NCBI GenBank assembly: GCA_963726315.1
Contig: CAVSBZ010000005.1
Span: 1,794,829 to 1,858,828, forward strand
Direction of reading: 5' to 3'
DNA: 64,000 bases
DNA from: an uncultured Chloroflexia bacterium
Lineage (GTDB): Bacteria; Chloroflexota; Anaerolineae; Anaerolineales; UBA4823
The notes under the pieces are model-generated. The model was not told the DNA's origin, made no database searches, and was given only the letters and a program-made list of their open reading frames with translations. This document shows positions 15,852-64,000 of this stretch, one piece after another (positions within the stretch are counted from its first letter, which is position 1; each line of letters starts with the position of its first letter). Made by a program: the position numbers and the translations under genes.

Positions 15852-15873
15852 TGGTATATGATTTGGAGGTTTT

Positions 15874-16113
15874 ATGTGTCTAGCTGTACCGGGAAAAATC
15901 CTGGATATATACGAAACGAACGGTCTGTTGATGGGCAAGATTGATTTCGGAGGCGTTACTCGCGAAGCCTGCTTAGCCTATGTGCCTGAGGCGAAAGTTG
16001 GAGACTACACCATTATTCATGTGGGTTTCGCTTTGAATTTGATCGATGAACAGGAAGCCATGGAGACATTATCGCTCCTGGATGAGATTTCGAGGCAGGA
16101 CATCGAAGAATGA
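15874..16113 (+). CDS. hypC: Hydrogenase assembly chaperone HypC
   Basis: 79 aa starting MCLAVPGKI (conserved Cys2). Confidence 0.85.
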
Positions 16114-17198
16114 AATATTTATCTGAATATCGAGATGCCCATCTGGTTCAGTCTGTAATGGATGAAATATCTCGCACTATTCACCATCCCTGGGTAATCA
16201 TGGAAATTTGCGGTGGTCAAACGCATTCCATCATGAAATCTGGCTTGGACCAGCTCTTACCTGAGGGTTTAGAGCTGGTGCATGGACCGGGTTGCCCGGT
16301 ATGTGTAACCTCACTGGAAATGATTGATAAGGCGGTCGCAGTTGCATCCGAACCGGGTGTGATCTTCACATCTTATGGTGATATGCTGCGGGTACCTGGT
16401 TCAAATGGAGATCTTTTTTCAGTCAGGGCAGCTGGCGCTGATATCCGCGTGGTGTACTCGTCCTTGGACGCAGTTAAAATTGCACAGGACAACCCAAATA
16501 AACAGGTCGTTTTTTTTGCTATCGGGTTTGAAACCACGGCTCCGGCTAATGCGATGAGCGTTCTCCTGGCGCAAAAACTGGGAATAAAAAATTTTAGTTT
16601 ATTAATTTCCCAGGTCAGGGTTCCTCCCGCAATGCATGCAATACTCAGCTCTCCCAATAACCGGGTACAGGGATTTCTGGCAGCTGGTCATGTGTGCACC
16701 GTAATGGGTTTTTGGGAATACCCTCCACTGGCAAAAAAATACGGGGTTCCCATTGTTGTGACTGGCTTTGAACCACTGGATATTTCCCAGGGGATTTTAT
16801 ATGTGGTCAGGCAGTTGGAAAAGGGCACATATGAAGCTGAAAATGCCTATTCACGTGTGGTTAACTTCGAAGGAAACATCCCCGCTCAGAAAGTAATACG
16901 CCAGGTGTTTGATGAGTGTGATCAAAACTGGCGCGGTATTGGTAAAATCCCTAATAGCGGGTGGAGACTTAAACCCGAATTTGTGGAATTCGATGCTGCC
17001 GTAAGGTTTCAAGTCGAATCCATACAACCCTCAGAGTCACCAATATGCATTGCCGGGCAGATCTTACAGGGATTAAAAAAGCCGTTTGATTGTCCTGCTT
17101 TCGCTGAACAGTGCACTCCTGAGCACCCTCTGGGAGCCACTATGGTGTCATCCGAAGGTGCCTGTTCAGCGTATTATCGCTATGGAAGGTCCCAATGA
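16110..17198 (+). CDS. hypD: Hydrogenase formation protein HypD
   Basis: 362 aa. CGGQTH and GPGCPVCV motifs. Overlaps hypC by 4 nt. Confidence 0.9.
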
Positions 17199-18274
17199 CA
17201 GAAGAATTACCGGATTTGCAAGGTCTTGTTTGCCCTGTTCCATTACATCACAATCAAAGGATTGTCATGGGACATGGTAGTGGAGGCCGGATGTCATTCG
17301 ACCTGATATCGAAGGTATTTGCCTCACCTTTTGACAATCCGATCCTAAGGGCAGGAGATGATGCAGGTGTAGTAACTATTCCAAACGAAATTGATCCACT
17401 GGGTTCGAAACTCGCCATCAGCACTGATTCTCACGTGGTAATGCCGCTTTTCTTTCCTGGTGGCGATATTGGCAGGCTTGCTGTCTGCGGGACGGTTAAC
17501 GATGTCGCTATGATGGGGGCGAATCCTCTATATCTGACCGCGGGTTTTATTTTGGAAGAGGGGTTGGATATTGAAATTTTGAAAAGGGTAGTTGAGTCTA
17601 TGCGGATCACTGCCCTGGAAGCAAATATCCAGATTATTGCCGGTGATACCAAAGTAGTCCAGAATGGGAAAGCAGATGGGATGTACATCAATACAACCGG
17701 TGTAGGGATCATCCCTAACCATGTAAACATCAGTGGATGCAATGCCAATCCTGGTGATGTCGTGATCATATCCGGATCAATCGGTGACCATGGGATTGCC
17801 GTTCTTGCCGCTCGAGGCGAGCTTCATTTCGAAACTCAAATTACATCCGATGTCGCCCCATTGAATAGTCTGGTTTCATCGATTTTAAACGCAACCAATC
17901 AGATCCACGTTTTGCGTGATCCGACCCGCGGTGGTCTGGCAACCAGCTTGAATGAGATATCCGTCCAATCCCGTGTTGGAATACAAATTTTTGAAGATAC
18001 CATCCCGGTGAAGCCTGCAGTGGCTGCTGCCTGTGAAATGCTGGGCTTTGATCCGTTATACGTCGCCAATGAGGGTAAACTGGTAGCAATCGTAGCAAAA
18101 AATGCAGCAGATGAAGTACTTTCGGTGATGAAAGATCATCCCCTCGGCGTGAATGCATCGATCATAGGCACAATCACCGATAACCCGGCCGATCATGTGA
18201 CGGTGAGGACAAGTTTTGGCACTACACGTATGGTCGACATGCTGTCTGGCGAGATGCTACCCCGGATTTGTTGA
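17195..18274 (+). CDS. hypE: Hydrogenase maturation protein HypE
   Basis: 359 aa. AIR-synthase-like fold with C-terminal ...PRIC. Overlaps hypD by 4 nt. Confidence 0.9.
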
Positions 18275-18315
18275 TTTATCGTCCCGGAATTGTAGTAGTG
18301 TAAACTCAGGGAATT

Positions 18316-18888
18316 TTATCTGCCCGCCTTATTGATCACAATCCAGGCGGTTGAATTTTCAACTTCAATATTGACCACCGCACCAGGAAGGTCGAACGCA
18401 GCAGCAATATTCTGAGGGGATAAAAAATGGCTGCGCATCAAAGCCAGCTTTTCTACCAGGGCTATAATTTTTACCGGGAAGGTTCTGATATCTGGTTCTT
18501 GAATAACAATCCGCCCACCGGGTCTGAGAACCCTCCACAACTCATTTAGCGTTATTCGGTAATCATAGACGTGATGGAGTGCATCCACCATGATAATCTT
18601 CTCGAACAATCCATCTTTAAAAGGTAATTGTTCTGTCGCGGAACATACTGTCATTAATCCATCTTTATTCCCCGCCTGGTTAAGCATTCCCATTGAAGAA
18701 TCGGCGATAACAATACCCGACACCAATCCAATCAGGCGATGAGATTTGCCACCTGTGCCCCCTGCTGCATCGAGTAGTAACCCAGTTGCAGGTAACTCGA
18801 GCAACCTAGTGAACATACCAGGATCGCCTGGTTTTAAAAACCGGTCATAATAAGGAGCCAGGAAATCAAAGTGATTGAACGGTTTCAT
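18316..18888 (-). CDS. Class I SAM-dependent methyltransferase
   Basis: 190 aa. Motif I LLDAAGGTGG and post-I acidic residue context. Confidence 0.7.
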   Translation of the reverse strand: MKPFNHFDFLAPYYDRFLKPGDPGMFTRLLELPATGLLLDAAGGTGGKSHRLIGLVSGIVIADSSMGMLNQAGNKDGLMTVCSATEQLPFKDGLFEKIIMVDALHHVYDYRITLNELWRVLRPGGRIVIQEPDIRTFPVKIIALVEKLALMRSHFLSPQNIAAAFDLPGAVVNIEVENSTAWIVINKAGR

Positions 18889-18958
18889 TTCCTCTCACAG
18901 ATATTAAAGAGCCCCCTGTATCAGGAGGCTCTTTACTAATTTATCTTTTAGTGTGTAA

Positions 18959-19198
18959 CTAAAACTCATCTTCATCTATATACAGGTCATCGTCTTCTTC
19001 ATCAACATCAACGTCTTCCCAATCATCCAATTCATCGCCTTCATCTTCCTCTTCGTCCCACTCATCTTCTGTTTCGACATCATTCGCACGGGAGTAAGTC
19101 ATACATCCCATGTCAGGATCAATCTCCACAGCAGCTGCTCCACAATATCCATCGTCCAGGAAAACACAATCAACGTAATGGCATCGTATACGGGGCAT
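18959..19198 (-). CDS. Small Cys-rich (DUF1540-like) protein with poly-acidic tail
   Basis: 79 aa. N-half CHYVDCVFLDDGYCGAAAVEIDPDMGC; C-half is almost only D/E. AGGAGGA 6 nt upstream of the ATG. Confidence 0.5.
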   Translation of the reverse strand: MPRIRCHYVDCVFLDDGYCGAAAVEIDPDMGCMTYSRANDVETEDEWDEEEDEGDELDDWEDVDVDEEDDDLYIDEDEF

Positions 19199-19442
19199 CG
19201 AATCCTCCTGCTAAAATGTAATCACATTCCGTCATATCTTTATCCAAGATCAACTTATAAGTCAGTTTTCCAGACGGCAGTGATTTTACCTCAGTTCGTG
19301 GAAACAGAATAGTATCTGTCAAGAGTAAATTTCAACCTTTTTCCCATTTTGAAATGTGAGGCGACATTATATCACCACATTTATAAAATAGTTGTTCAGC
19401 TGGAATTGTGTTGAGTAATATACAGTCCCCCTTATAGTATTC

Positions 19443-21698
19443 TTACCCGGGTCTGATCCGGTGGGCTTCCATAACATTGGGCAACGCTTCAATCCTGGTT
19501 AATACCCTGGTAAGCTGGTCAATATCCTTTACTTCCAACACCAAATCGAGCACTGCAAGGCTTAGTTTGGAATCGTGGTTTACCCCTGCCTGGACCAGAC
19601 CCATATTAATCCCCTCATTGGCGACTAAATTCGAGACGTCCCTGGCGAGTCCGTCGCGGTCATACGCTTTTACCCTGACAGATACCGGGTACGTACGTTT
19701 GGGTTCTCCCCATGCGACCCGTACTAATCTCTCCCTTTCCTTCAACCTCAAGATATTGGGACAATCTCTGCGATGGATAGTCGCTCCGCGACCCCGGGTG
19801 ATGTAGCCGATAATATCATCACCAGGAACAGGATTACAGCAGCGTGCCATAGTGGTTAATAACCCTTTAAACCCACAACTGTGATCGTATCGTGGCTCTC
19901 GCCGGCTGTCTCCGGGATAATGCGTGTCCCAAACTTTAATCCCTCTTCATCCTGCTCATTTTGCATCAATTGGTTGGCTATCCGAATGAGCGGTATATCT
20001 CCACAGCCAATCGCAACGTAAAGATCGTCAACGATTTTATAATCAAATTGGCGCGCAAGTTGTTCGATATTGATATCCGCCAACCCTAACCGACGTAATT
20101 CACGCTCGAGTAAATCTCTTCCTTGATTGATGTTCTGTTCCCGAGCTTGCTTCTTGAACCAATAGCGTATCTTAGCTCTCGCCCTCTGCGTTTTCACCAA
20201 TCCAAGGTTTGGGTTAAGCCAATCTCGACTGGGTCCTCCCCGTTTTGCAGTTAATATTTCAACCTGTTCGCCAGTGCGTAACATGTAATCGAGCGATACG
20301 AGCTTTCCGTTAACCTTAGCCCCTCGACAGCGGTGTCCGATGTCCGTGTGGACGTGATATGCAAAGTCAATTGGGGTAGATCCTGCCGGTAGGTCGTAAA
20401 TATCACCCTTTGGTGTAAAAATGTAGACTCTGTCCTGGAATACATCTGATTTAAGGCTGTCGACAAATTCACCTGCATCAGTCAATATCCTGCCGCCATT
20501 CCATTAATGAACGGAACCACAGGATTTTTTTCTCGAAGGCTTCATCTCTAGGCGCCCCCTCTTTATATCTCCAGTGGGCAGCAATTCCCAGCTCAGCGTT
20601 TTGGTGCATCTCGGGTGTACGAATTTGAATCTCTAAGGTTTTCCCATCGTCATACAGCACTGCGGTATGTAAGGATTGATAAAAATTATCTTTTGGTACT
20701 GCAATATAGTCGTCGAATTGCCCGGGAATAGGTCTCCAATGGGTGTGAATCACACCCAGGGCACTATATGCTGATGGTACATCAGGAACAATGATGCGCA
20801 CTCCACGAACATCGTGTACCTGGTCGAATGGGACACCTTTTCGCACCATTTTTCGGTAAATCGAATAGATATGTTTTGGACGCCCGGAGATATCTGCTGT
20901 TATCCCTGGCAGAGTAATGATTTTCGACAACTGATCGATGATATCGTTCATCTCGCGTTCGCGATCAAGACGGCGTTCGGCGATGTTGTTGGCTATTTCC
21001 TTATACTTATCGGGATTGACATAGCGGAAAGCAAGGTCTTCAAGCTCCCATTTCATTGTCCAGATGCCCAACCGGTTTGCCAGGGGAGCAAAAATATCCA
21101 ATGTCTCTTGCGCAATCCTCTGGCGTTTTTGAGCAGGCATGTGGCCAAGCGTCCGCATATTGTGCAGCCGATCAGCCAACTTGATCAATACCACTCGAAC
21201 ATCTTCCCCCATAGCCAGGAAAGTTTTCCGCAGCGTTTCTGAAACCAGATCATATCGCCTGCTTTTTGTTCGTTGATCAGCGGTATCTTCAGGGCTGGGC
21301 TCCCCCCTTCGATCCGCAGCCAGGCGCAGTTCTTCCTCGAGAAGTTCATCCTCTGCATGCTGGTCCCCTCTTGAAACCCTGGGCAGCTGGGTCAATTTGG
21401 TGACGCCGTCAACCATCTTGGCAACAGCTTCACCAAAGTCATTTTTAATATCATCCAGTGTGACTGCTGTATCCTCAACGGTGTCATGTAAGAGTCCTGC
21501 CACAACAACATCGACGGGTACGCGCAGCTCAGCCAGTATCGCTGCAACGGCAACGCAATGGTTTACATATGGCTCACCGGACGCTCTGTTTTGACCTTCA
21601 TGTGCAGTCTCCGCCATTCTGTATGCGCGTAAGATCAATTCACGATCTGCAATCGTATACAGGTCTGGCAGTGATTCCATTAGTTTCTCGATTTGCAT
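19443..21698 (-). pseudogene. rel: Bifunctional (p)ppGpp synthetase/hydrolase (RelA/SpoT homologue) split into three ORFs by two frame changes
   Basis: ORF 20478-21698 covers the HD hydrolase (HDTVED) and synthetase domains. ORF 19856-20485 covers the TGS domain. ORF 19443-19850 covers CCNPVPGD plus ACT. Junction 1 needs a +1 shift and junction 2 a -1 shift. Total length 2256 nt = 752 codons, consistent with one gain and one loss. Confidence 0.85.
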
Positions 21699-51154: not shown

Positions 51155-52177
51155 CTACCTGGTAAAGTGGAAGGTGTTGACGATCATTGTATACACGTCT
51201 TCCATCTGCTGGTACGCAGGAGCCAGCGTGGTGTCGGGCACGAACATCATCCAATAAAGCTGGTCGTTGTGGACCATGTACAGCCGGCGGTTAATATCTT
51301 GCCCGGTCAACCCGCCGACGGAATAGGCTGGCTCACCATCGATTTCCATCACCGTGATGTCGCCTCCGGTGTACCCGGGACCCATCACAGACTTGTTATC
51401 CTCAGCGATCGCAGTGGCAACCTGCTCAGCCGTGCGCCCATTTGCCGGCTCGACGAAGATGGTGGCTGCCGCGCGATCATCGCTTGGATGACCCTCTCCC
51501 GGTGCCAGGAACATGACTTCACTGTCACTTGGGTTTAAAACCTCGTAATCTTTGGGCAGGAACATGCTGAAACCGAGGGCATCATCTGTGTATGCCTGTA
51601 TACCGCCGACGCGTGCCCCGCTGAAGCCGCCCTTTATCTGCATCCAGCCGTGCCATTTCAGGCTGTCTGCAGGCTCCATGGTGACGAACAGGATGGCCTC
51701 GTCGCGCCCATCTTTACCCCAGCCGCTAACCAGGTACGCATACATGACACCCAACTCGCTGCCAGGAATGGAGAGCGGATCGATGCCACCCATCAGGGTT
51801 TTGAGGTCGGCATCCTTGACCAACTCCAGCTTGTTATCTGTGCCCAACTGGTCAGCATAAAGGAAATATATGGCCTCATCGGGTGAACTCTCGGATTGGT
51901 TGAAGCGCCATGTGCTCTCCAGGAAAGGATTGGTCATCCACTGCTGCAGCTTTCCGGTATTGTGCGCGGTCAGTGCCTGGAGCAGCGCGGGCAGAAAGGA
52001 TTCTGGGTCGGTAAAGATTTCGGGGTTATCAACACCAACCGCCGAGTCGGTTGTGACCGGGGTGGGAACATTTACATTGCTTGTCACCGGTTGGATCGTC
52101 TGCGCACAGCTAGAAAGGAGCAATGCGAAGATCAGCAAGAGCGGTGTGAGGATGTGGATTGTGTGTTTGGAAGCCAT
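51155..52177 (-). CDS. Hypothetical secreted lipoprotein
   Basis: ATG 52177 (AAGGAA 6 nt upstream) gives MASKHTIHILTPLLLIFALLLSSC with a lipobox. 340 aa and no recognisable catalytic motif. Confidence 0.6.
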   Translation of the reverse strand: MASKHTIHILTPLLLIFALLLSSCAQTIQPVTSNVNVPTPVTTDSAVGVDNPEIFTDPESFLPALLQALTAHNTGKLQQWMTNPFLESTWRFNQSESSPDEAIYFLYADQLGTDNKLELVKDADLKTLMGGIDPLSIPGSELGVMYAYLVSGWGKDGRDEAILFVTMEPADSLKWHGWMQIKGGFSGARVGGIQAYTDDALGFSMFLPKDYEVLNPSDSEVMFLAPGEGHPSDDRAAATIFVEPANGRTAEQVATAIAEDNKSVMGPGYTGGDITVMEIDGEPAYSVGGLTGQDINRRLYMVHNDQLYWMMFVPDTTLAPAYQQMEDVYTMIVNTFHFTR

Positions 52178-52383
52178 AGCATTTCCTTTAGACCTGAAGA
52201 TAAACAATGATCAGATTTTTATCAATATTACACATGAGGCTGCTGCCAGCCGCATGTATCTTCAGATATTATGACGAAAAATAATCTAGATAAGTTCCGT
52301 GATCTGTGAATATTCTCTTTTAACCTGCAACAAAGGAAAGAATGTTCTAATTTCCAAGGGTGGAAGCGCTTGAAAATTCCACT

Positions 52384-52467
52384 GCCTTATGGTCAGAGCG
52401 CCTGCCTTCGGATCAGAGGTTGTGCACCCTTGACGGGTATCCGGTTCGAATCCCGCCGGGGGCGCCA
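52384..52467 (+). tRNA. Degenerate tRNA-derived sequence (Arg-TCG-like anticodon loop, long variable region, intact 3' T-loop/acceptor/CCA, no 5' acceptor strand)
   Basis: The 3' end GGTTCGAATCCCGCCGGGGGCGCCA is a canonical T-loop, 12 nt, G73 and CCA. Upstream, GCCT-TATGGTCA-GAGC is D-arm-like. CCTGC-CTTCGGA-TCAGA is an anticodon arm with 2 mismatches. A 22-nt variable region holds the ACCC/GGGT hairpin. The T stem pairs 3 of 5, and no GCCCCCG partner for the acceptor lies within 150 nt. Confidence 0.4.
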
Positions 52468-52782
52468 AGATATGGGGGATGACAGTTGATTTACCGCCAC
52501 ATATAGCCATAGTTGCAAAGGTTAACAAATAGTTTAGCGCCATTTTAGCGCCATTAATTAATTCTCGAAATGGAGCGTGTGGAAAATAGATCGGCGTCCT
52601 ACATCCCCTGGAAACCGATCTTATGGGTTAACCGAGGGCACTACTATCAGCTCATTCGTATAAGATCGATCAGTAATAGAAATTACCTCTAATTAATGGA
52701 TCTATTAAATCTTAATGTTTGGTATGATATACATCAAATTCGCAGTAGAAATATTTGAAAATATTCCACGTAGAGACATAAC

Positions 52783-53766
52783 ATGAAACGAATCCAGATC
52801 GAAGCATGGGCATTGGAAATTATTGATCGTGTTAATTCCAAAAATCCAATTGAAGACTTTCGTGTAGAGTTGAAAACTGAATGGCCTGATCCTCGAAGAG
52901 CGGCCAGAAGAATAGCAGGTCATGCCAATGCAGCAAGAGGGGAATCCATACTTTGGTTAATTGGGGTCGATGAAGATAAAGGAGTGAAAGGAGCGACCAA
53001 AGAAGAATTAGCCAATTGGTTTATATCTGTTCAAGCAGAATTTGATATGGTAGTTCCAACTATGATTGACCTTACTATACCTATAGACGGAAAAACTATT
53101 GTTGCTTTATATTTTGAAACCGACCGAGCTCCTTATGTTATTAAAAATCCTCTGTTTGGCATAGAAAAAGGTGGACCAATTTCTCACGAAACACCTTGGA
53201 GAGAAGGTACAAGTATAAGAAGCGCACGACGGTCTGATCTATTAAAACTGCTAATACCAATTATGTATGTACCTGAAATAGAGGTTCTTGATGGAGATCT
53301 TACTTTATTAGCAGATAAAGAAGGAAATTGGTATTGGAATCTTCACTGTTCTACATATATTACACCCCAAATTGGCTATCCCTGTGTATTACCATTTCAT
53401 CGATGTGAAGCATCTTTCGAAATAGTTAATCTAGTCGAAAAAACTGATTTCGTAAATATTAGATTAGTCCCTCCATATACCTATCAACATAGTTGGTCAA
53501 CTGGTCCTTCTCAAAATGTATCCGATTCTCTTACAATTAGTCATACTGGATCCGAAGCGATCATTGAGGGACCCGGACGACTAAATATTACTGGAGGAGG
53601 CGAGTCAAAATCAACAATTATCAATTTTGACAATTCGGTAGCAAAATTAATAATTAAGATTAGTATATCTCATTCTGATAAAGCAATTCAACTTAACGAG
53701 ACATTATATTGGCGTGTTCCGGACGGAAATACTGTTGGGAAATGGATTATAAATAGATCAACCTAA
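52783..53766 (+). CDS. Hypothetical protein with N-terminal AlbA_2/Schlafen-type putative DNA-binding domain; low-GC gene
   Basis: 327 aa. EDFRVELKTEW...IAGHANAARGESILWLIGVDEDKGVKG...IVALYFETDRAPYVIKN...WREGTSIRSARRSDLLKLL follows the AlbA_2 pattern. The C-terminal 150 aa or so is unassignable. Visibly AT-rich relative to neighbours. Confidence 0.55.
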   Translation: MKRIQIEAWALEIIDRVNSKNPIEDFRVELKTEWPDPRRAARRIAGHANAARGESILWLIGVDEDKGVKGATKEELANWFISVQAEFDMVVPTMIDLTIPIDGKTIVALYFETDRAPYVIKNPLFGIEKGGPISHETPWREGTSIRSARRSDLLKLLIPIMYVPEIEVLDGDLTLLADKEGNWYWNLHCSTYITPQIGYPCVLPFHRCEASFEIVNLVEKTDFVNIRLVPPYTYQHSWSTGPSQNVSDSLTISHTGSEAIIEGPGRLNITGGGESKSTIINFDNSVAKLIIKISISHSDKAIQLNETLYWRVPDGNTVGKWIINRST

Positions 53767-54209
53767 CTATGCTAAAAGTTGACACCGGGGATTCACCCAG
53801 AGACTGATCTAAGACAGATTTCAGACAGATCGGTAACTGCTCAGCTCTTTTCTCTTTTTAGATCCCTGAGATCAATCGGGATCGGAGTGAGAATATCATC
53901 CATCAGGCGAGCTGCCTCATCCTGGGTCCTTGGAATATTGCTAGCAAAGTAAGCAAAGCGAGCTAAGTGTGCATAGCAAGTCTTAAGATCGCCAGGTAGT
54001 GACCCAGCATCCGCCTAAAAACGGGGCAGCCGCCTAGAAATCAGGCTGCCCGGGAAGAACACCAGGATCCATAGAACGGAGTGGCGTGATCCCAGCCACG
54101 ATCATCGATGTATAATATTTATTAGGCCTATATACAGCTAAATATTCAGCAAGGTGGCATATTATGAACTAATTAGGCGGCTTGTTTGCGGATTTCAGGA
54201 GCAATAAGT

Positions 54210-55231: not shown

Positions 55232-57343
55232 TTATGGACCAATATACGTTGTACGTGTAGACGAAAAAACATCGAAGTATTCCGTACCGAGCGTTCCTGA
55301 TGGCACGGCCTGTGGACCTAGAAGTACGTCCTCAAGTCGATAGCCTCCATTGGCAACCCCATTGACGGTTTGCTTGAGAGACCCATCCAGCCACAAGCTG
55401 ACGGCTCCATCGGTGCCTTTGGCAGTTGAAGCAGCTTTCCAAGCCAGTTCAATTGCGTGGGGTGAGTTGCTGATGGAGTACCAGCTGCTCGTAACGGTTT
55501 TCCCGCTGCCGGTTAAGGTCGCTACCCGCACCTGGTAGGCACCTGAAACCAGCTGCAGCTGGACGCGCAGGATCACCGAGCCGGAGGCAGTGCGGCCTGT
55601 GAAAATATCTTGGACCTTGTTCCTGGGCAGGCTGACCCCATTGGGTGAGAAGTAAAACCGAGCGTGATAAGCGGGTTCAGCCAAGGGGGAGGTATCCTGA
55701 ACATAGATGGACTTTGTGCTGTTGATGACCGCCAGCATGCCTTGCGACCCGCTCATGGCAGCTTGCGGACCGACACTTAACCTGCCACCATCGGTCACTG
55801 CCGCGGTCCAGCGGCTGAAATCACCTGATTCAAACCCATCTGTGAAGATGTTATCGATAACCGGAGTGGGGGTCGGTGAAGGTGTGCTGGTCGGGGGTGG
55901 AGTTGGGGAGGAAGTTTCCGTTGGGAGTGGAGTGGCCGTTGCAGTTGGTAGCGGGGTAGGTGTAACACGGTTTCCAGCTGCCAGCCAGTTATAGGCGGCC
56001 AGCGCATCGATCAGACCATAGCCATAATCATTGTCAGGGCCTGTTAAGCCTCTGTCGAAGGCAGTGTTCAGCAGAGCAGCAGACTGTGACTCAGTGGTGA
56101 TGCCCGGAAAAGCGCTGAGAAGCAAGGCCAGGGCTCCGGAAACATGCGGTGCAGCCAGTGAAGTGCCGCTTTGCTGGGCGTACAGGCTATACAGGTCGGT
56201 GGTAAGGATGTTCGCCCCAGGCGCAACTGCCTCCGGATAGATGCTGGACGTCTCACCGCAGGTAGACGGTCCGCGACTGCTGAAAGATTGGATCGCGCCA
56301 GTGTTATCCACGGCGCCGACAGCAAAAGCTTCGGGGTAATTGGCAGGGCTGACACTGGTAGAGGCATTGGGTCCATAATTACCAGCTGCGAAGACAGGCA
56401 GGATGCCTGCCAGGCGCAGTGCCATGAGGTCGTTTTGGAATTCGAGGTTGCAGCCTGGCGAACTATAGGACCAGGAATTATTGATCACCTGGGGGGCATC
56501 AGGTGTGGATGGATTGCCGTCAGGGTCAAGCAGCCACTGAAATCCGAGATGAATGGCGGTAGCGGTGGCGGCGCCGCTGTCGTTGAAGATCTTCACAGCA
56601 ATCCACCTGGCTCCGGGAGCCACACCCAAGGCGGTGCCGGAGGCATCGCCAGCTACCATCACCCCCATGGTCCAGGTGCCGTGGCCAGTAATGTCGGTAG
56701 GCGTGGTAGGGTGCTGGTTATAGGGATCATACCAGCTGTCGTCACCTCCTCGCCAGCGGGTAGCCAGGTCAGGGTGGTTCAGGTCGACACCAGTATCCAT
56801 GTTTGCCACTACCACACCCTGACCAGTATCACCCAGGCTCCATAGATCGGGGGCGTGGATGGCAGTCAGGTTGTCAGCTGGGACAGCTTCCGCGACATTT
56901 CCAACCGGAACAATGTCGGTAGCATCAGAGGTGATGCTGGCGACTTCAGGACGGTCAGCCAGTGCCTGGATTACTGCTGGGGTGGCTGTGACTGAGAGTC
57001 CGTTAAACACCCAGAAGGGGATGATGTTAATTGCACGTCCCTGGGCTTGTTCAGCTGCTAGTTGAGCTAAAAGTCCCGCCTGCTTCTCACGAGCCAAACC
57101 TTGCAAGCCGTGGATAACAGCCATCTGGTTGGGTAGATTCTGGAGAGCGGAGATATCCGGTCGATATTGGTCCCTCAGGGTGACAATGACCGTGACCATC
57201 TGCCCGGCGGGGAGGCCGTCCATCTGTTCCTGCACCTGGGGAGCTATCTTGGCATCCGCGGAACCCGCCTGGGCTTCCCGGCTCACAAAGAGATATGATA
57301 TAACGCTCACAATGATAACGAGTAAAGGGATGATCTTTTTCAT
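55232..57343 (-). CDS. Secreted S8 (subtilisin-like) serine peptidase with P/T-rich linker and C-terminal beta-sandwich-like domain
   Basis: ATG 57343 (AGGGAG upstream) gives MKKIIPLLVIIVSVISYLFVSREAQA as signal peptide. Catalytic D (VVVANMDTGV), H (HGTWTMG) and S (SGTSLAAPHVSG). Linker TPTPLPTATATPLPTETSSPTPPPTSTPSPTPTP. Confidence 0.85.
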   Translation of the reverse strand: MKKIIPLLVIIVSVISYLFVSREAQAGSADAKIAPQVQEQMDGLPAGQMVTVIVTLRDQYRPDISALQNLPNQMAVIHGLQGLAREKQAGLLAQLAAEQAQGRAINIIPFWVFNGLSVTATPAVIQALADRPEVASITSDATDIVPVGNVAEAVPADNLTAIHAPDLWSLGDTGQGVVVANMDTGVDLNHPDLATRWRGGDDSWYDPYNQHPTTPTDITGHGTWTMGVMVAGDASGTALGVAPGARWIAVKIFNDSGAATATAIHLGFQWLLDPDGNPSTPDAPQVINNSWSYSSPGCNLEFQNDLMALRLAGILPVFAAGNYGPNASTSVSPANYPEAFAVGAVDNTGAIQSFSSRGPSTCGETSSIYPEAVAPGANILTTDLYSLYAQQSGTSLAAPHVSGALALLLSAFPGITTESQSAALLNTAFDRGLTGPDNDYGYGLIDALAAYNWLAAGNRVTPTPLPTATATPLPTETSSPTPPPTSTPSPTPTPVIDNIFTDGFESGDFSRWTAAVTDGGRLSVGPQAAMSGSQGMLAVINSTKSIYVQDTSPLAEPAYHARFYFSPNGVSLPRNKVQDIFTGRTASGSVILRVQLQLVSGAYQVRVATLTGSGKTVTSSWYSISNSPHAIELAWKAASTAKGTDGAVSLWLDGSLKQTVNGVANGGYRLEDVLLGPQAVPSGTLGTEYFDVFSSTRTTYIGP

Positions 57344-57362
57344 AATCTTGTAAACTCCCTGG

Positions 57363-58212
57363 TCATTGAACAACCACTGGTTCGATGCGATGATTCCCAA
57401 ACACAAGGCTGACCGAAGAGCCCGATTGGATCACCTGTTAAGTCGGGAAGAAAATGATGTACTGTTTTCCTACTTTAAGCCTGTTGCCAGTGTGTGAATG
57501 CATATGAGGAGCCAACACCAGGAGTTGTTGATCGACTAATAACGCGGGCTTGATTTTTGAATAATTCCTGCGCTCTATCTGGTTCGATCACTTTCAAGCG
57601 TACGTCGACGATACTATCCAACATGGAAGTCGCGACCAATGATACCTGTACACCGTATCGCTCTTCCAATTCAGGTAATGTAATTGCCGGGGAGTCCATC
57701 ACTTGCTCAAGGCTGACGACATGCATACCATAAGTCATAGTCGCCGAAGTGTCCCAGCGATATACTGCAGTGCTGAACAGCACGAGAATAAGTACTCCAG
57801 TCGTGGGCAGGAGATATTGCTGCATTTTGACTGTTCCTAAGCTCGGCTGGGTAGCATTTATGGACCGCCATGGGCGAAGGCAGAATAGCAGCACAAACAG
57901 CACCTCTATTACCATGGCTGAGATCCCAAAGGGCATCAGCCACTCCTCCACTTCCATACCTGGCATTCCCAATGACCTGCTCCATATATACCCGGCTATC
58001 GAGGCTAGCGCCACGAACAGGCCAACCAGCCACCCCCACAATTCCTTACGATAGATACCGTAGGCAGCGATCAACGCCAGGACGAAATTGCCGACGAAGA
58101 GATAGCCCATATATACTGCCTCTTCGTATTCGCTCTGGGCGGTCATCAGATGCAGCAGTCCGGTCTCCAGGATAAGTACGATAGCCAACCAATTTAGAAA
58201 TCTTTTTTTCAT
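57363..58212 (-). pseudogene. Membrane protein (4-5 TM helices plus extracytoplasmic domain paralogous to 58251-58745), disrupted by one frameshift and one in-frame TAA
   Basis: ATG 58212 (AAGGAG 6 nt upstream). The as-read ORF stops at 57475. The +1 frame after the A5 run (57554-58) reads KPALLVDQQLLVLAPHMHSHTGNRLKVGKQYIIFFPT*QVIQSGSSVSLVFGNHRIEPVVVQ*. This aligns with FPALYTEQGVVLNAP...IKFITGGNLFIMYPN...VTILFGNISIEPIHAR of the neighbouring paralogue. 850 nt = 283 codons + 1 nt. Confidence 0.65.
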
Positions 58213-58250
58213 TATTTTCTCCTTAGAATAATCCACCAATCTCAACATAC

Positions 58251-58745
58251 CTACCTGGCATGGATTGGTTCAATGGAAATATTTCCGAATAAAATGGTCA
58301 CCGGTTTATCCTGGGTGACTGCGTTTCCGGAATTTGGGTACATGATGAAAAGATTTCCCCCGGTGATGAACTTTATCTCCTGCGATTTTGTTTCCGCAGG
58401 AGCGTTTAAAACAACTCCCTGCTCGGTATACAATGCTGGAAAGTTGTTCTTATCTGCCAACAGCAGTTTTAATTTCTCACCATCAACAATTTTCATGCGG
58501 ACATCCACAAATCCGCCAGCGGCAGTCACTGCAACCAGATTCACGCGCAGACCATACTTCTCTTCCAGGGTGTTCTGAGAAATCACCACAGCTCCCTTTG
58601 AAAGAGCTGCACCTTCAAATGCCCTGGAGAGGTTGACTGCATACAAGGAGATAGCGATCAATATGAACAGAATAATGACAATGGATATAAGTTTATTGGT
58701 TGAATTGCGTGACAATAAAGTGCGGTTGGGTTTCACGGCTTGCAT
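58251..58745 (-). CDS. N-terminally anchored protein of unknown function (paralogue of the C-terminal domain of 57363-58212)
   Basis: 164 aa. TM anchor LISIVIILFILIAISLYAV. LEEKYGLRVNLVAVTAAGGFVDVRMKIVDGEKL matches LEERYGVQVSLVATSMLDSIVDVRLKVIEPDRA in the next gene. AAGGAG upstream. Confidence 0.6.
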   Translation of the reverse strand: MQAVKPNRTLLSRNSTNKLISIVIILFILIAISLYAVNLSRAFEGAALSKGAVVISQNTLEEKYGLRVNLVAVTAAGGFVDVRMKIVDGEKLKLLLADKNNFPALYTEQGVVLNAPAETKSQEIKFITGGNLFIMYPNSGNAVTQDKPVTILFGNISIEPIHAR

Positions 58746-58875: not shown

Positions 58876-61569
58876 CTACGGGATATCAAACGCATCGATA
58901 TCCTGGTTGCTATTCGTCAATCCACGTGCGGTACCGTCGAAGTACAATAGCCAGGTACCATTGTTGTAGTAAACAACATCCTCATCTTGGACTGCTCCAA
59001 GACCCACGATCGTCGTATTATCCGCAGAGAAGGAAAGGTAGAAGTGAGTGGCATCGATCCACACTAACCCGTCCACACCGGTATTATTATTGCCAGATGT
59101 AACCGGAACACCGATTGTAGAGGCATCCACTACACGACTGAAAGCTGTTCCATTCCAGAGATAGATATCGGCTGCATCTGCAGTACCACTGACACCTGGT
59201 GGGTTAGAATTACCAACCGTGGAGAAGTAAATCGTGCTTCCAACGACAGTGAATGCATCGATATCCAGGTTATTGCTATTCAGTCCCCGGGCGGTTCCGT
59301 CAAAGAACACAGACCACGTCCCTGCGTTGTAGTAAACGATATCTTCATCCTGGACAGTTCCGGGTCCCGGTACGGACACGTTACCACTGAAAGACATGTA
59401 GAAGTGGGTCGCATCAACACGGTCGAAGCCATCGACATTCGCTCCACTTGGGAGGGAATATGGTGCAATTGAGGCATCAATCACACGGCTGAATACAGCG
59501 CCGTTCCACAAGTAGATATCCGCATCATCCGCAGTTCCACCGACACCTGGAGGATTCGTTGTTCCAAGGGTCGAGAAATAGAGCGACTTTTTGATCACCA
59601 GGACTGTGGTGCTCATTCCACCCCAATTCCCAGATGCGTCCTTGGCATGGACATAGATGGTATGGCTGCCCTCTGAGAGAGGAGCGATCACGGCGAGTGG
59701 GATATCATAGAGACCTGTTTCTGATGGGCTGTTAAAAGTGCCATCGCTCGCAGCGAAGACATAACCCGTGCCAGTTGTGCCAACCGTATCCAGGAAACCT
59801 TCAGCTGCGGCAATGTTTGAACCGCCGGTAGCTGCATCACTGAAGCTGGCTGTCACGCGCACTGCCTGAACGCTGGTATTGAATCCCCAGCTGCCATTAT
59901 TCGGATTGGGTGAAGCACTGACTCCGCTGGTGGTAGGACCAGTTTGGTCAACAACCAAGGTGATCGTGGCTGGTATGCCCCAATTGCCAAGTGCATCCTG
60001 GCTGCGAACTGAGACAGTATAAAGACCCGCGGTGAGACCGGAAGGAGGAATCACAGCACTCAGGGTTTTCACCGGTGCTGGAGAACTGACTGTGACGGCC
60101 GCTGGTGCACCGCTATCGATCCAGTATTCCGCCGCGGTGACATTGCTGTTGCCGTTGGCACTGTCATTGGCAGTGAAAGACAAGGTCACGTTCACTGAAC
60201 CATTACTGGGATTGGGTGTCAGGCTAAGTCCACTGGTTACAGGACCTGAGTTATCCACGATCAGGTTGATCGTCCCGGTCGAACTCCAATTCCCCGCTGC
60301 GTCTTGGGCACGAACTGATACGACATGTGTTCCTGCGCTAAAGCTGGATCCGATTGAAGTGCTCAACGGAACAACCGGTGCCGGCGAACCGACTGGGATG
60401 GCTGTTGCAGCACCACTATCAATCCAGTATTCCGCCGCAACGACATTGCTATTGCCGGTTGTCGTGTCATTTGCAGTGAAGGAAAGGTTTACATTCACTG
60501 AACCAATACTGGGATTGGGTGATAAGCTCAGGGATGAAAGTAAGGGCCCAGTTATGTCAGGTCCCGGGGGCGGTGTAGAACCCACTGTTAGGAAGGTCAG
60601 CATGCCACCGACACCTGAGTTTGTAGCACCAGTGCCAGTGTTGTTGCGTAAAGACATATTAGCATCATAAAGAGCGAACATGTCTCCTGTGACAGCTGTG
60701 GCGGGGATGACGACGAGGGTATCCAGGGTTTGCCCGGTGGCGATCGTTTCTGCGACCACCTTATGTGAAAGAGCATATGGGCTCCCATCCTGGGCGATGA
60801 TGGTTTGCGAAAGGCCGAGGGTGCTCATTGCATGCGCTTGCAAGCCAGCATTTACATAACGAAAGAGTACTGTATCAGCAGGATCGACTGCAAAGGGAAG
60901 TGTTCCGGGATAGGCTTTTCCGTTGATCAGGAAGTACCTAGGGTTGTATTCACGCATGTCAAAAGCGGCTGAATCGCCTAAGGGATTCTTCGTTGTGACG
61001 GCATATAGTGAAGGATCGAATTCGCTCAGAACCAGGACTGTTTCTTTAGTGAATGCTGTGCTCGGATCATCATATGCCTGACCAAGAGCTGCAGGTCGTA
61101 CGATCAGTGCACCGTATAACCCCATCGCCACTTGATGTTGGGCGTTGGCAAGCAGGCCTGCTTCGTAGAGGAAAGTCCCTGCACTGCTGGCTGTGAACGT
61201 ATACGTAAAGGACCCACCAGGTGCAACACCGACCGTATCAGGGATCATATCCTGACCCTGGAAGAGTAAAGACGTAGTTTCGGAAAGGTCGTTATATAAG
61301 GTTATCCCCACACATACTCCCTGACTGACGTCCAAGACGGGACCAGGTAGGGTTGCGTCACCACCAGCTGTGCTGGAGTATCCATAGATGTTCACCGTGG
61401 TAGTCCCATACAGGGTGGCTATTCCCGTTTTAGCATATAAGTCAAAGCTAACTGTAGGTGTACAGGGGGCGGCATAAGCCACGGATGATTTTAGCCCAGC
61501 AGCGAGCATCGCCACCAGCACAAGCAGTGCCATTGTTATTTTTAGTGTATTGCGTGTTATTGTTTGCAT
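58876..61569 (-). CDS. Secreted two-cupredoxin (MCO-like, copper ligands absent) protein fused to 3 Ig-like repeats and 2 C-terminal repeats of about 116 aa
   Basis: ATG 61569 (AAGGAG 6 nt upstream) gives MQTITRNTLKITMALLVLVAMLAAGLKSSVAYA as signal peptide. LLFQGQD replaces HWHG and FLYEAG replaces the HxH motif. See the repeat features below. Confidence 0.75.
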   Translation of the reverse strand: MQTITRNTLKITMALLVLVAMLAAGLKSSVAYAAPCTPTVSFDLYAKTGIATLYGTTTVNIYGYSSTAGGDATLPGPVLDVSQGVCVGITLYNDLSETTSLLFQGQDMIPDTVGVAPGGSFTYTFTASSAGTFLYEAGLLANAQHQVAMGLYGALIVRPAALGQAYDDPSTAFTKETVLVLSEFDPSLYAVTTKNPLGDSAAFDMREYNPRYFLINGKAYPGTLPFAVDPADTVLFRYVNAGLQAHAMSTLGLSQTIIAQDGSPYALSHKVVAETIATGQTLDTLVVIPATAVTGDMFALYDANMSLRNNTGTGATNSGVGGMLTFLTVGSTPPPGPDITGPLLSSLSLSPNPSIGSVNVNLSFTANDTTTGNSNVVAAEYWIDSGAATAIPVGSPAPVVPLSTSIGSSFSAGTHVVSVRAQDAAGNWSSTGTINLIVDNSGPVTSGLSLTPNPSNGSVNVTLSFTANDSANGNSNVTAAEYWIDSGAPAAVTVSSPAPVKTLSAVIPPSGLTAGLYTVSVRSQDALGNWGIPATITLVVDQTGPTTSGVSASPNPNNGSWGFNTSVQAVRVTASFSDAATGGSNIAAAEGFLDTVGTTGTGYVFAASDGTFNSPSETGLYDIPLAVIAPLSEGSHTIYVHAKDASGNWGGMSTTVLVIKKSLYFSTLGTTNPPGVGGTADDADIYLWNGAVFSRVIDASIAPYSLPSGANVDGFDRVDATHFYMSFSGNVSVPGPGTVQDEDIVYYNAGTWSVFFDGTARGLNSNNLDIDAFTVVGSTIYFSTVGNSNPPGVSGTADAADIYLWNGTAFSRVVDASTIGVPVTSGNNNTGVDGLVWIDATHFYLSFSADNTTIVGLGAVQDEDVVYYNNGTWLLYFDGTARGLTNSNQDIDAFDIP
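58879..59586 (-). repeat. Two tandem coding repeats of about 116 aa (YFST.G..NPPGV.GTAD.ADIYLWNG..FSRV.DAS...DATHFY.SFS...VQDED.VYYN.GTW..FDGTARGL...N.DIDAF)
   Basis: Residues 671-786 and 787-906 of the 906-aa ORF align position by position. Confidence 0.75.
59590..60564 (-). repeat. Three tandem Ig-like coding repeats (about 100-118 aa each)
   Basis: Residues about 345-669. GP.TSGLSL(S/T)PNPS.GSVNV.LSFTAND...GNSNV.AAEYWIDSGA...AG.H/Y.VSVR.QDA.GNW... occurs twice almost identically and a third time diverged. Confidence 0.75.
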
Positions 61570-61586
61570 GTTAGTCTCCTTAGCCC

Positions 61587-62867
61587 TTATGGACAATTGT
61601 TGGGCAGGGGTGGGTCAACCCGCAGATAAGTGATCGGACCGGACATAGTCTGTCCGAAAGCATCCAGCTGGAACAATGCGTGGTTGTGCGAGATAATGTA
61701 ATACTCGCCGCACTGGTTAAGCGTGTTGGTGCCCGGGGGCATAGTCTCCATCGAACCCAGGTACGGGCTGCCGCTGTAGAACATGCCGATCATCACATTC
61801 ACCAGGTCTGGCACGGGGACCGGGACCTGATTTGATGGGCTATAACCTTCTGCGTCGTGCCATTTGAAGATCACATCCCAGGTTTGACCCGGACCGATAT
61901 TGACGGCGAATTTCTCGAACGACAGGTCTTGACCACCAGAACCTTCCAGTGGATAACCATCGCGGCCAATCACCAATCCATTCTGCCCGTGGGGGTGGAA
62001 TGGATATTCTTCAGATCCCACATTGATGAAGCGTTCCACTGCGGGATAAGGATGGGTGGCAGCATCATATGGATAGATACTTGCCAAAGCACCATAGGGT
62101 TGAGCTGTCAACCAGGGAGCGTTGTTATCGGCGATGCTATCCGGGAAGCCGCGCCCATTAATCAGCCAGTAGCGCGCGTCATAATTGTTCAGGTTGAAGT
62201 TTTTACCGTTGGATGAACTTAACTCCCATGCCTGATGCTGAAAAGGATCTATTTCTGACAACAATGCCATGAATTCTTCGGTGGGAGTGAATTGGCTGTC
62301 GGCTCGGTTATAAACGTAGTTGGCACCCAAGCTAGGTCGGACGATCAAGGCTCCGAACAAGCCCATGGGTACCTGGGTTTTGGTATCGGTCCCGCTCTCA
62401 TAGATGAACGTGCCGGGGCGGGTGGCGATAAAACTATACGTAATGCTTTCACCATTAGCCACACTGTTGGTTAGCGAATTGTTCGCTAAATCAGGTTGGG
62501 CAAGTCCGGTACCGGCAACGACATTCTCCTGCCCGGGGAACATGATCGAAGTTCTGAGACTATAGGGCAGGGAATTAGTGAGAACTACAGTTACCGTATC
62601 CCCTTCATTGACGCACAGCGTGGGACCCGGGTGCTGGAATGCTCCACCAGTCAGGCTATAACTCCACATATACATGGCGTTCATGTCGGGCATTTGGATG
62701 TAACCAGACTGTGCTGTCAGTTCGAAAGTTGGTCCGGTGGTACACAGGATGCCTGTTTGCGGGAGTGCAGCTTTTGCGAGTTGAACCGGTGCCAGCGGGC
62801 TCAATGCCAGCAGCCCCAGGATGACTACCATCGCCAACCGCATCCATTTATTTTTAGTTGTACGCAT
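61587..62867 (-). CDS. Secreted multicopper-oxidase-like protein with partial ligand set (HPH and HNH only; no type-1 Cys)
   Basis: 426 aa with a signal peptide. In the N-domain IMFPGQE replaces HWHG and FIYESG replaces the HxH motif. The C-domain keeps YPFHPHG and IISHNHALFQ, where HNH sits at the HCH position. Confidence 0.75.
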   Translation of the reverse strand: MRTTKNKWMRLAMVVILGLLALSPLAPVQLAKAALPQTGILCTTGPTFELTAQSGYIQMPDMNAMYMWSYSLTGGAFQHPGPTLCVNEGDTVTVVLTNSLPYSLRTSIMFPGQENVVAGTGLAQPDLANNSLTNSVANGESITYSFIATRPGTFIYESGTDTKTQVPMGLFGALIVRPSLGANYVYNRADSQFTPTEEFMALLSEIDPFQHQAWELSSSNGKNFNLNNYDARYWLINGRGFPDSIADNNAPWLTAQPYGALASIYPYDAATHPYPAVERFINVGSEEYPFHPHGQNGLVIGRDGYPLEGSGGQDLSFEKFAVNIGPGQTWDVIFKWHDAEGYSPSNQVPVPVPDLVNVMIGMFYSGSPYLGSMETMPPGTNTLNQCGEYYIISHNHALFQLDAFGQTMSGPITYLRVDPPLPNNCP

Positions 62868-62896
62868 TTTTAATTACTCCTTCTGACTAATCCCCG

Positions 62897-64000
62897 CTAA
62901 ACAGCGGGGTATTCGACGGGGTGTTGGTTTAAATACTCTTGGTCACCAAGGGTACCGGTGGGATAGACACGCACTTCCGTACGCTGCCCCGCTGCCCCAC
63001 CAGGGGACAGGTTGCTATCTTGGGTGTAGCGGCGGTTGTACAAGATATACTTGTCGTAGCTACGTCCTTGTTCATCAGTATCAGTGCCACCGCTAAAGGG
63101 TGGGGCTTGAATGATGACATCGTAGCTTTCACCGGCACCCATCAGGAGCGTATCGGTGAAGTAGCTGGTATCGGTGCCGTCACGACCCCTCATCGGGGTG
63201 GCATCACGCCCAACAACCCTCATCTTTATGCCTGCCAGGGTCATGGCTGCTTCACGGAAACCCAGGTTGGCAAAGCGCAGCAGGACTCTTTCGTTTTCAT
63301 TGCAAGCGACCAGGGCTGAATGTGGGTTATATTGCAAGTGCTCGTACCCCGGAAGAGTCATCAAATCACCATTGGCATCCGTCTGGACGGTCAAAGCGTG
63401 AGCTGAAGATCCAATGGAATTTGGACGATCGATCGGTGAGTTGGGATGCAATGTATCCGGATAGACTCGCCCGTTGAGCAAGCTGAAATCCGCTTCAAAA
63501 AGGCTCCAATCGGATTCCTGGATGTGAGCATCGTTCCAGTGACCCAGCAACCAAATTTCACTCAGGAACAGGGCATTTTCACGGTCATAGCCGGTTGAAC
63601 CGTCACCATCGTTATAGGCAAATTTGGTATAACCACCAATACTTTGCCCATTCTGTAATGGGCGGACGAACACGATCCCGGTCATGCCCATGGTTACATG
63701 TTCGATATCTTCCACATGGCAGTGATACATGTAAGTCCCCGGATCGCGCGGGCGATACACATAGGTAAAGAACTGGTTGACTGGCACTGCGACTGAACCG
63801 GTTGGTTCGCCGTCAAAGAACGGGATTACATTCCGAAAGCCATGCCAGTGCAAGGTATGGGCATCCGTCAGATCTGGGCGTAGCGCCAGGCCCAGGTTGG
63901 TGAGCTGAACTTTGAAATCTTTAGGATTACTCGGATCAAACTGATCCACCCAGAAAAAAGGCGCATTGTGCTGAGCCTTTTCCTTCTGGTTTAGGCGCTG
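62897..64000 (-). CDS. Multicopper oxidase-type protein with intact HWHG and HCH-x5-H-x4-M motifs; 5' end beyond the window
   Basis: The frame stays open from 63949 to 64000 (QRLNQKEKAQHNAPFFW-V...), so the track's GTG start is probably internal. Contains LHWHGF and YHCHVEDIEHVTMGM in one cupredoxin domain, followed by a ligand-free cupredoxin domain. Confidence 0.8.
   Translation of the reverse strand, partial: QRLNQKEKAQHNAPFFWVDQFDPSNPKDFKVQLTNLGLALRPDLTDAHTLHWHGFRNVIPFFDGEPTGSVAVPVNQFFTYVYRPRDPGTYMYHCHVEDIEHVTMGMTGIVFVRPLQNGQSIGGYTKFAYNDGDGSTGYDRENALFLSEIWLLGHWNDAHIQESDWSLFEADFSLLNGRVYPDTLHPNSPIDRPNSIGSSAHALTVQTDANGDLMTLPGYEHLQYNPHSALVACNENERVLLRFANLGFREAAMTLAGIKMRVVGRDATPMRGRDGTDTSYFTDTLLMGAGESYDVIIQAPPFSGGTDTDEQGRSYDKYILYNRRYTQDSNLSPGGAAGQRTEVRVYPTGTLGDQEYLNQHPVEYPAV

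Follow-up and report, generated by a model that had tools for sequence, protein, structure and literature searches.

Can the copper site of a multicopper oxidase (MCO) be divided between the products of separate genes? This question is raised by three neighbouring genes in a stretch of 64,000 nucleotides (nt) from an uncultured Chloroflexia bacterium (contig CAVSBZ010000005.1), the whole of which is referred to here as the window. The genes, named C, B, and A in the order of transcription, lie head to tail on the minus strand at the end of the window, with intergenic gaps of 29 nt (C to B) and 17 nt (B to A). An initial annotation of this DNA had placed the three reading frames here, with C running off the window edge, and had proposed that they encode an oxidase with its ligands split between subunits. 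Checking of the open reading frames bears out these positions, and every motif quoted for the three proteins was found, including FPGQ and YESG in domain 1 of B and FQGQ and YEAG in A. The core pattern given as common to C, B, and A is present, but as a schematic only, since the spacing from Tyr to MG is 10 residues and not 4. From the sequence comparisons described below, it is fairly likely that C, B, and A are subunits of one extracytoplasmic MCO, which would have originated from a type C two-domain MCO (2dMCO) by gene triplication and complementary loss of ligands.

Copper ligands of the three paralogues

The gathering score of Cu-oxidase_3 (PF07732) is exceeded by C, by B, and by A over its initial ~335 residues, and C is additionally above the gathering scores of PF07731 and PF00394. 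All three proteins therefore match PF07732 in the Pfam check that had been suggested, and profile alignment to the PDB entries 2ZWN and 3G5W gives the ligand positions. These two entries, the type C 2dMCOs metagenomic mgLAC (2ZWN) and Nitrosomonas europaea blue copper oxidase (3G5W), are the best PDB matches of C, with alignments over both domains. They are also the top matches of a broad B-family profile (3G5W, 3.3e-22; 2ZWN, 1.5e-21), again with both domains aligned; a narrow B profile reached only domain 1 of PDB entries, and the broader profile was needed for domain 2. Ceruloplasmin was also detected by the B-family profile. Comparison of the ~80-orthologue alignments using hhalign shows paralogy across both domains for each pair (B–A, E 7.5e-56; B–C, 3.8e-24; A–C, 4.4e-23). 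The JGI names for B and C are 'FtsP/CotA-like multicopper oxidase'. Copper nitrite reductase (NirK) was rejected as an identity, based on scores of 25–37 bits against a TIGR02376 cut-off of 296 and on a ligand pattern of four HxH motifs.

In C, domain 1 contains a complete type-1 site (H48, C94, H101, and M106, with Met as the axial ligand) and two HxH motifs (H51/H53 and H93/H95). Its HTLHWHG and YHCHVEDIEHVTMGM align with HTIHWHG and YHCHVNVNEHV..GM of 2ZWN and 3G5W. The Cys, His, and Met initially assigned to the type-1 site are correct, but the set was incomplete, as H48 of HxxHxH belongs to it too; nor is the combination of a type-1 site and two HxH motifs in one domain unusual, as had been thought, being normal for type C 2dMCOs. 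Domain 2 of C is without ligands. REAAMTLAGI stands where 2ZWN has IHAMHSHGH, and LYNRRY, which by its position in domain 2 is the likely counterpart of FIFHDH, is also free of His; both domain 2 HxH motifs have therefore been lost in C.

In domain 1 of B, FPGQ replaces HWHG, YESG replaces YHCH, and the type-1 site is absent. In domain 2, FHPHG aligns with IHTHG of 3G5W, MHSHG of 2ZWN, and the His-less MTLAG of C, while in the family profile the H(N/S)H of the B family aligns with FIFHDH of 2ZWN. The HNH of B had been interpreted as the loss of a Cys to Asn, however type C enzymes never have Cys at that position and carry HDH there (FIFHDH in 2ZWN), therefore the Asn is not a lost Cys. A has none of the four HxH motifs and no type-1 site. 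Six half-sites are possible in three paralogues and two remain, one from domain 1 (in C) and one from domain 2 (in B). The full MCO ligand set, a type-1 site and eight His in four HxH motifs, is reached by C and B jointly and by no single protein. The proposed supply of two HxH motifs by C (HWH and HCH) and two by B (HPH and HNH) is borne out by the motifs and the alignment, and the orthologue alignments agree that only C retains canonical domain 1 ligands, those of B and A having been lost. Neither B nor A contains a further conserved HxH that could give it a full ligand set elsewhere.

It had also been considered that the part of C beyond the window might hold all eight His. Full-length C from the same genome (P0121, 468 amino acids (aa), 100 % identical over the window part) has an N-terminus consisting of a twin-arginine signal (SINRRDFF) and ~60 mature residues without HxH, and the N-terminus is likewise without HxH in the Anaerolineales and Roseiflexaceae orthologues. 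C alone therefore cannot hold all eight His.

Conservation of the partition and of export signals

When one genome per species was scanned for the pattern, 222 species proved to have an orthologue of B; cultured carriers include Humibacillus xanthopallidus DSM 21776, Cryobacterium breve, Xylanimonas sp. McL0601, Nocardioides sp. YIM 152588, and Actinotalea sp. For analysis, 80 loci were taken, from Chloroflexota, Actinomycetota (Nocardioides, Cellulomonas, Humibacillus, Xylanimonas, Cryobacterium, Actinotalea, and Intrasporangium), Burkholderiales, Steroidobacteraceae, and Acidobacteriota, and genomic contexts were read from the homologous loci. In C (80 orthologues), 60 of 367 columns are invariant, with all eight ligand positions among them. 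In B (81 orthologues), 81 of 426 columns are invariant and H291, H293, H394, and H396 are the sole invariant His. No His or Cys is invariant in A (79 sequences). The median random-pair identities are 0.67, 0.65, and 0.51 for C, B, and A, respectively, and the median identities to the window copies are 0.64, 0.64, and 0.51. The partition is without exception in ~80 species of Chloroflexota, Actinomycetota, Proteobacteria, and Acidobacteriota, all twelve ligand residues (eight in C and four in B) being invariant at pairwise identities of 55–67 %; judged from these alignments, such a pattern of ligand conservation is far beyond chance. Replaced ligand positions are themselves kept, as E157 in B, E136 in A, and R323 in domain 2 of C.

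Two further His are invariant in C, H11 (~63968–63970, in AQHNAPF) and H159 (~63524–63526, in NDAHIQ). The conserved Cys of C are the type-1 Cys and just one other. In the 81 orthologues of B, C42, C85, and C386 are conserved in 100 % and C425 in 99 %, which is consistent with two disulfides in a protein exported by the general secretory (Sec) pathway.

The same partition is seen at greater evolutionary distance. An exhaustive search with B against 1.84 billion cluster representatives reached 207 clusters at E<1e-30, rising to 1,242 at E<1e-10, and almost all of 104 inspected 50 %-cluster representatives show the B pattern, with an HxH-free domain 1, one HxH near residue 270–330, and HSH or HNH near the C-terminus. 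Five divergent loci (L085, L086, L087, L088, and L090) were examined in full and each has the same partition. The HxH motifs of C are HCH and either HWH or HFH, with no others; domain 2 of B contains an HxH near residue 280–315 as well as HSH; and the third protein matches the A profile and is HxH-free. A single extra HxH, in B of L090 (HEH217), is non-conserved. Because the partition recurs in these divergent loci and in the wider B family, the sequences indicate that it is old and general and no quirk of a single lineage.

The genes also stay together. Counting neighbours relative to B, in only those loci whose contig reached far enough, B is adjoined by C in 76 of 76 loci and by A in 76 of 76, with the order C-B-A kept, so that the conserved order raised as a test in the initial annotation is found in related genomes. 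In L085 and L087 the neighbouring stop and start codons of the triad overlap. Natural fusions of B to A, without frameshift junk, are present in P0242 (1,156 aa) and P0243 (884 aa), and beside each of these is a separate C gene, the stop of which overlaps the start of the fusion. Other apparent fusions, of C to B (P0312 and P0314) and of B to A (P0270 and P0277), contain frameshift junk and were rejected as artefacts.

The three proteins differ in their export signals. A twin-arginine motif is present in nearly all of the complete C N-termini, with 65 of 80 fitting a strict pattern and the exceptions being mostly RR variants or truncated N-termini, and the motif is absent from all B (0/81) and all A (0/79), which have signals of Sec type. 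With C directed to the twin-arginine translocation (Tat) pathway and B and A to Sec, a copper cluster shared between them could not be completed in the cytoplasm. Completion after export would fit with extracytoplasmic copper chaperones encoded in the gene cluster.

A proposed heteromeric ring and its alternatives

The trinuclear cluster of a 2dMCO trimer is shared by two protomers, one contributing residues of its domain 1 and its neighbour residues of domain 2, and 2dMCOs are described as trimers of identical subunits in a 2026 paper (PMC13151041). As in type C 2dMCOs, there are two cupredoxin domains per chain in C, in B, and in the N-terminal part of A. The type-1 copper site in the N-terminal domain and the HTxHWHG and YHCHVxxxEHV..GM motifs of these enzymes are found here in C only, and the counterparts of their domain 2 motif forms xHxHG and xxHDH in B only. 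Known type C 2dMCOs are homotrimers with all four HxH motifs on each chain and three clusters per trimer, whereas here the domain 1 and domain 2 half-sites are on different gene products, the third paralogue has neither, at most one cluster per assembly is allowed, and no gene alone makes an enzyme. Because none of C, B, and A has four HxH motifs per chain, none is counted, on its sequence, as a type C 2dMCO enzyme by itself, and the sequences argue against a functional homotrimer of any of the three. The interpretation of C and B as a heteromeric split oxidase is supported by the partition and by the complete co-occurrence of the genes. A single inter-chain cluster fits the 2dMCO geometry, as this needs exactly one domain 1 half and one domain 2 half on different chains.

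The three proteins probably form an obligate hetero-oligomer, a C·B·A ring in which one trinuclear cluster would sit between domain 2 of B and domain 1 of C. Beyond the observed partition, homology, conservation, synteny, signal types, and B-A fusions, we infer the physical assembly, the ring order, the stoichiometry, and the loading with copper as follows. C would be exported folded via Tat, and B and A via Sec. Once outside the membrane, the three two-domain subunits, arranged as B, C, A, would close a ring of six cupredoxin domains with pseudo-threefold symmetry. Where B meets C, domain 2 of the former (HPH and HNH) would pack on domain 1 of the latter (HWH and HCH), creating one trinuclear copper cluster from eight His, four from each protein, and the His93-Cys94-His95 triad would wire this cluster to the type-1 copper of C, coordinated by the four residues given above. 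The type-1 copper would oxidise the substrate, and the interface cluster would reduce O2 to water. The remaining interfaces (domain 2 of C with domain 1 of A, and domain 2 of A with domain 1 of B) would be copper-free, and charge pairs or salt bridges at the kept replacement positions may stand in for copper at these two dead interfaces. A would take the third ring position, its immunoglobulin (Ig)-like and repeat tail setting the enzyme beside other secreted proteins of the gene cluster. The tethering or display role initially suggested for A may be read from this C-terminal region only. Copper would be inserted after export by cluster-encoded proteins, either SCO1-like, CopC-CopD, or p164 and p257.

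Several points weigh against this assembly. The contact between C and B is one that we infer, and the AlphaFold monomer models of C (predicted local distance difference test score, pLDDT, of 46 from a 32-sequence alignment) and B (pLDDT of 42 from 17 sequences) are too poor for use, so that no structure comparison was made from them. Export of C by Tat and of B and A by Sec demands that the cluster is built extracellularly, which is unusual though plausible. Some distant homologues of C have a Sec-type signal (for example, the C-type subunit L090:174-1505), which indicates from sequence that Tat export of C is not universal. A strict 1:1:1 ring is also at odds with L086, which encodes C, B, and a tandem A-A, making four two-domain units.

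It is unlikely, although it has some merit, that C and B alone are the catalytic unit and that A is a copper-free scaffold or adhesin outside the ring, sharing only the operon. The lower identity of A to its window copy, noted above, means that it evolves faster than C and B, its extensions vary at both the N- and C-terminus, and it can occur as a tandem A-A with a dockerin-like tail, all of which would suit a scaffold. However, A is found in 76 of 76 loci, it forms natural fusion proteins with B (P0242 and P0243), and its former ligand positions are conserved (Y135, E136, and G150). In addition, known 2dMCOs close the ring with three two-domain units (PMC13151041), and a two-subunit ring of such geometry is not known.

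It is improbable that there is no oxidase at all, with C being a blue-copper electron carrier or copper-binding protein and the His of C and B binding metal independently, for example in sequestration or in a surface-assembly structure with the giant protein described below. Oxidase activity of C, B, and A is predicted from sequence only, and the copper-handling genes of the cluster would equally fit copper homeostasis. Copper-free MCO homologues with structural roles exist, such as FtsP/SufI, which could be counted in favour of this explanation. Like A, FtsP/SufI has kept the cupredoxin folds and lost all copper ligands, but FtsP is a three-domain protein of cell division that lacks ligand-bearing paralogue partners. 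Against a non-oxidase role, what has been retained is precisely the eight trinuclear His together with all of the type-1 site and its Cys-His wiring. These residues do not vary between phyla, and the other four half-sites have lost every ligand. Independent half-sites have no known function, and the pattern is hard to explain unless the halves meet.

That the three paralogues work independently, each as a homotrimer of its own, is very improbable, for although the homotrimer is the only described 2dMCO quaternary state (PMC13151041), a C homotrimer would pair the His-bearing domain 1 with a His-less domain 2 and a B homotrimer the reverse, so that neither could form a trinuclear cluster, and the strict three-way co-occurrence would be left unexplained.

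The proposed C·B·A ring, with its one interface cluster, can be compared with other MCOs that have more than one subunit or more than two domains. A reported 'heterotrimer' (PMC11761707) is a single gene product that has undergone partial proteolysis. A full-text literature search found no description of a heteromeric or split 2dMCO, in agreement with the remark in the initial annotation that the arrangement is not a described system. Hetero-oligomeric MCOs encoded by adjacent genes do exist, in Bacillus MnxG with MnxE and MnxF and in the fungal two-subunit laccases (POXA3). Unlike C/B/A, the catalytic subunit of these has all of the cluster ligands, the accessory subunits are not cupredoxin paralogues, and there is no split site.

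Ceruloplasmin and hephaestin are rings of six cupredoxin domains in which one of three equivalent interfaces has a trinuclear cluster and the other two are degenerate. The proposed C/B/A ring would likewise have one active interface out of three. Ceruloplasmin, however, is one polypeptide with the cluster-linked type-1 site in the last domain, whereas C/B/A are three polypeptides with the type-1 site in a first domain; six domains were not found in one polypeptide, there being three genes with their own signals, and the only fusions found, of B to A, have four domains. The Nakamura and Go model of MCO evolution reportedly predicts an intermediate, of which C/B/A would be the unfused heteromeric counterpart. 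Factor VIIIa (A1/A2/A3-C1-C2) also consists of three subunits with two cupredoxin-like domains each in a pseudo-threefold ring, with the copper sites mostly lost. One of its subunits has C-terminal binding domains, as A has a tail; this is a resemblance only, since factor VIIIa is a eukaryotic protein, is formed when one chain is proteolysed, and is no oxidase.

The surrounding gene cluster and its meaning

The features of C, B, and A and of the genes that follow them are listed in Table 1. The conserved order of the cluster is a giant protein of ~2,200 aa, C, B, A, a small membrane protein, copper-handling proteins (SCO1, CopCD, or p257), and an S8 protease. Counted as for C and A, the giant secreted protein is present upstream in 64 of 64 loci, a p164-like protein in 67 of 69, a p257-like protein in 51 of 62, the S8 protease in 60 of 62, and a SCO1/SenC protein in 9 of 62, mostly Chloroflexota. 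A CopC-CopD fusion is in the place of p257 in L063 (~14780–16631; Actinobacteria), L085 (5113–6966), and L087 (9221–11122). Because SCO1 or CopC-CopD genes sit within it, the cluster appears from its gene content to bring its own extracytoplasmic copper handling.

Table 1. Coordinates of the C, B, and A genes, their copper-ligand motifs, and the neighbouring cluster genes in the window
Feature	Coordinates	Strand	Description
Gene C	62897..64000	minus	Open at window edge, 367 of 468 codons inside; two cupredoxin domains
C motif HTLHWH	63842..63859	minus	Type-1 His H48 and first trinuclear HxH (H51, H53)
C motif HCHVEDIEHVTMGM	63683..63724	minus	Second trinuclear HxH (H93, H95) and type-1 Cys94, His101, Met106
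Gene B	61587..62867	minus	426 aa, Sec-type signal, two cupredoxin domains
B motif HPH	61989..61997	minus	H291, H293, third trinuclear HxH; 81/81 orthologues
B motif HNH	61680..61688	minus	H394, H396, fourth trinuclear HxH; 81/81 orthologues
Gene A	58876-61569	minus	897 aa, ATG start; TTG at 61596 is an alternative start
A N-terminal part	60535..61569	minus	Signal peptide and two cupredoxin domains, without copper ligands, nearest to B
A C-terminal part	58876..60534	minus	Three Ig-like (Big_13-type) repeats and double ~115-aa repeat
p164	58251..58745	minus	164 aa, membrane-anchored small protein, member of conserved cluster
p257 gene	57366..58248	minus	Multi-pass membrane protein, p164-like C-terminal domain, 3′ end disrupted
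257-aa p257 reading frame	57475-58248	minus	
S8 subtilisin-type protease	55232..57406	minus	Peptidase_S8 4.5e-51; last conserved cluster gene

The p164 proteins have a conserved VTAxGG..R..D..KA core. No conserved metal-ligand motif was seen in their alignment, and for this reason the name chaperone was not applied. Relative to the homologue at L001:15080-15922 (280 aa), the window copy of p257 aligns in frame only to ~residue 221; its last ~48 residues (57366–57545, minus strand), with a His/Met-rich APHMH(S/R)H, are in another frame with an internal stop. The disrupted p257 is either a pseudogene or an assembly error.

The giant protein (L001:1922-8548; beyond base 64000 of the window) always precedes C and has ~50 % identity across phyla. 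Its sequence is without a match in the PDB, and SdrD_B is the sole Pfam hit; read by eye, it has SdrD_B-like sandwiches, a parallel beta-helix-like repeat region, and two LamG-like ends. A has variable N- and C-terminal extensions, and in L086:4112-6202 (P0325) the tandem A-A that follows C and B has four ligand-free cupredoxin domains and a dockerin-like tail. In the window, the last ~235 residues of A (58876–59610) are a double repeat, noted also at L063:9736-14166 and 16460-19702. The C-terminal repeats of A have no PDB sequence match. In Actinobacteria, both the giant protein and the S8 protease end in a double repeat of the A type; in Xylanimonas the copies in A and the S8 protease are nearly identical. 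This suggests a shared targeting or docking module, with recent gene conversion. As read from their sequences, the giant beta-helix protein, the protease, and the shared C-terminal modules point only to an extracellular or surface-associated role for the oxidase.

A scan for promoters and terminators gave no signal above shuffled background. Just beyond the end of the cluster, the G+C content falls to 0.405 at 52001–54000, with flanks of 0.49–0.54, and a 327-aa open reading frame (52783–53766) lies inside this stretch.

In its fullest form, the proposal is that C/B/A are an obligate heterotrimeric MCO, a living unfused intermediate between homotrimeric 2dMCOs and six-domain ceruloplasmin-type enzymes, with one interface cluster built outside the cell from Tat- and Sec-exported subunits, and that this enzyme is the catalytic core of a horizontally spread ~18-kb extracellular machine, whose other members include a conserved beta-helix protein of 2,200 aa, copper chaperones dedicated to it, and a protease. 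We regard the proposal, taken as a whole, as evenly balanced between being right and being wrong.

To our knowledge, every described 2dMCO is a homotrimer and every other MCO has its whole copper site on one chain. If the proposal is true, a copper site split over two gene products is a new quaternary design in a heavily studied enzyme class, and subfunctionalisation after triplication is made concrete, with three clusters reduced to one. We know of no example so far of this step, which is predicted by the domain-duplication model of ceruloplasmin and factor VIII evolution. For annotation, thousands of database proteins named 'multicopper oxidase' could not be enzymes singly, and single-gene expression in laccase mining would miss the C/B/A family. 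A testable question is also raised, namely how an interface cluster gets metallated after export. The cluster is conserved in soil and activated-sludge Chloroflexota and Actinomycetota, with cultured strains among its carriers, and would thus be open to genetics.

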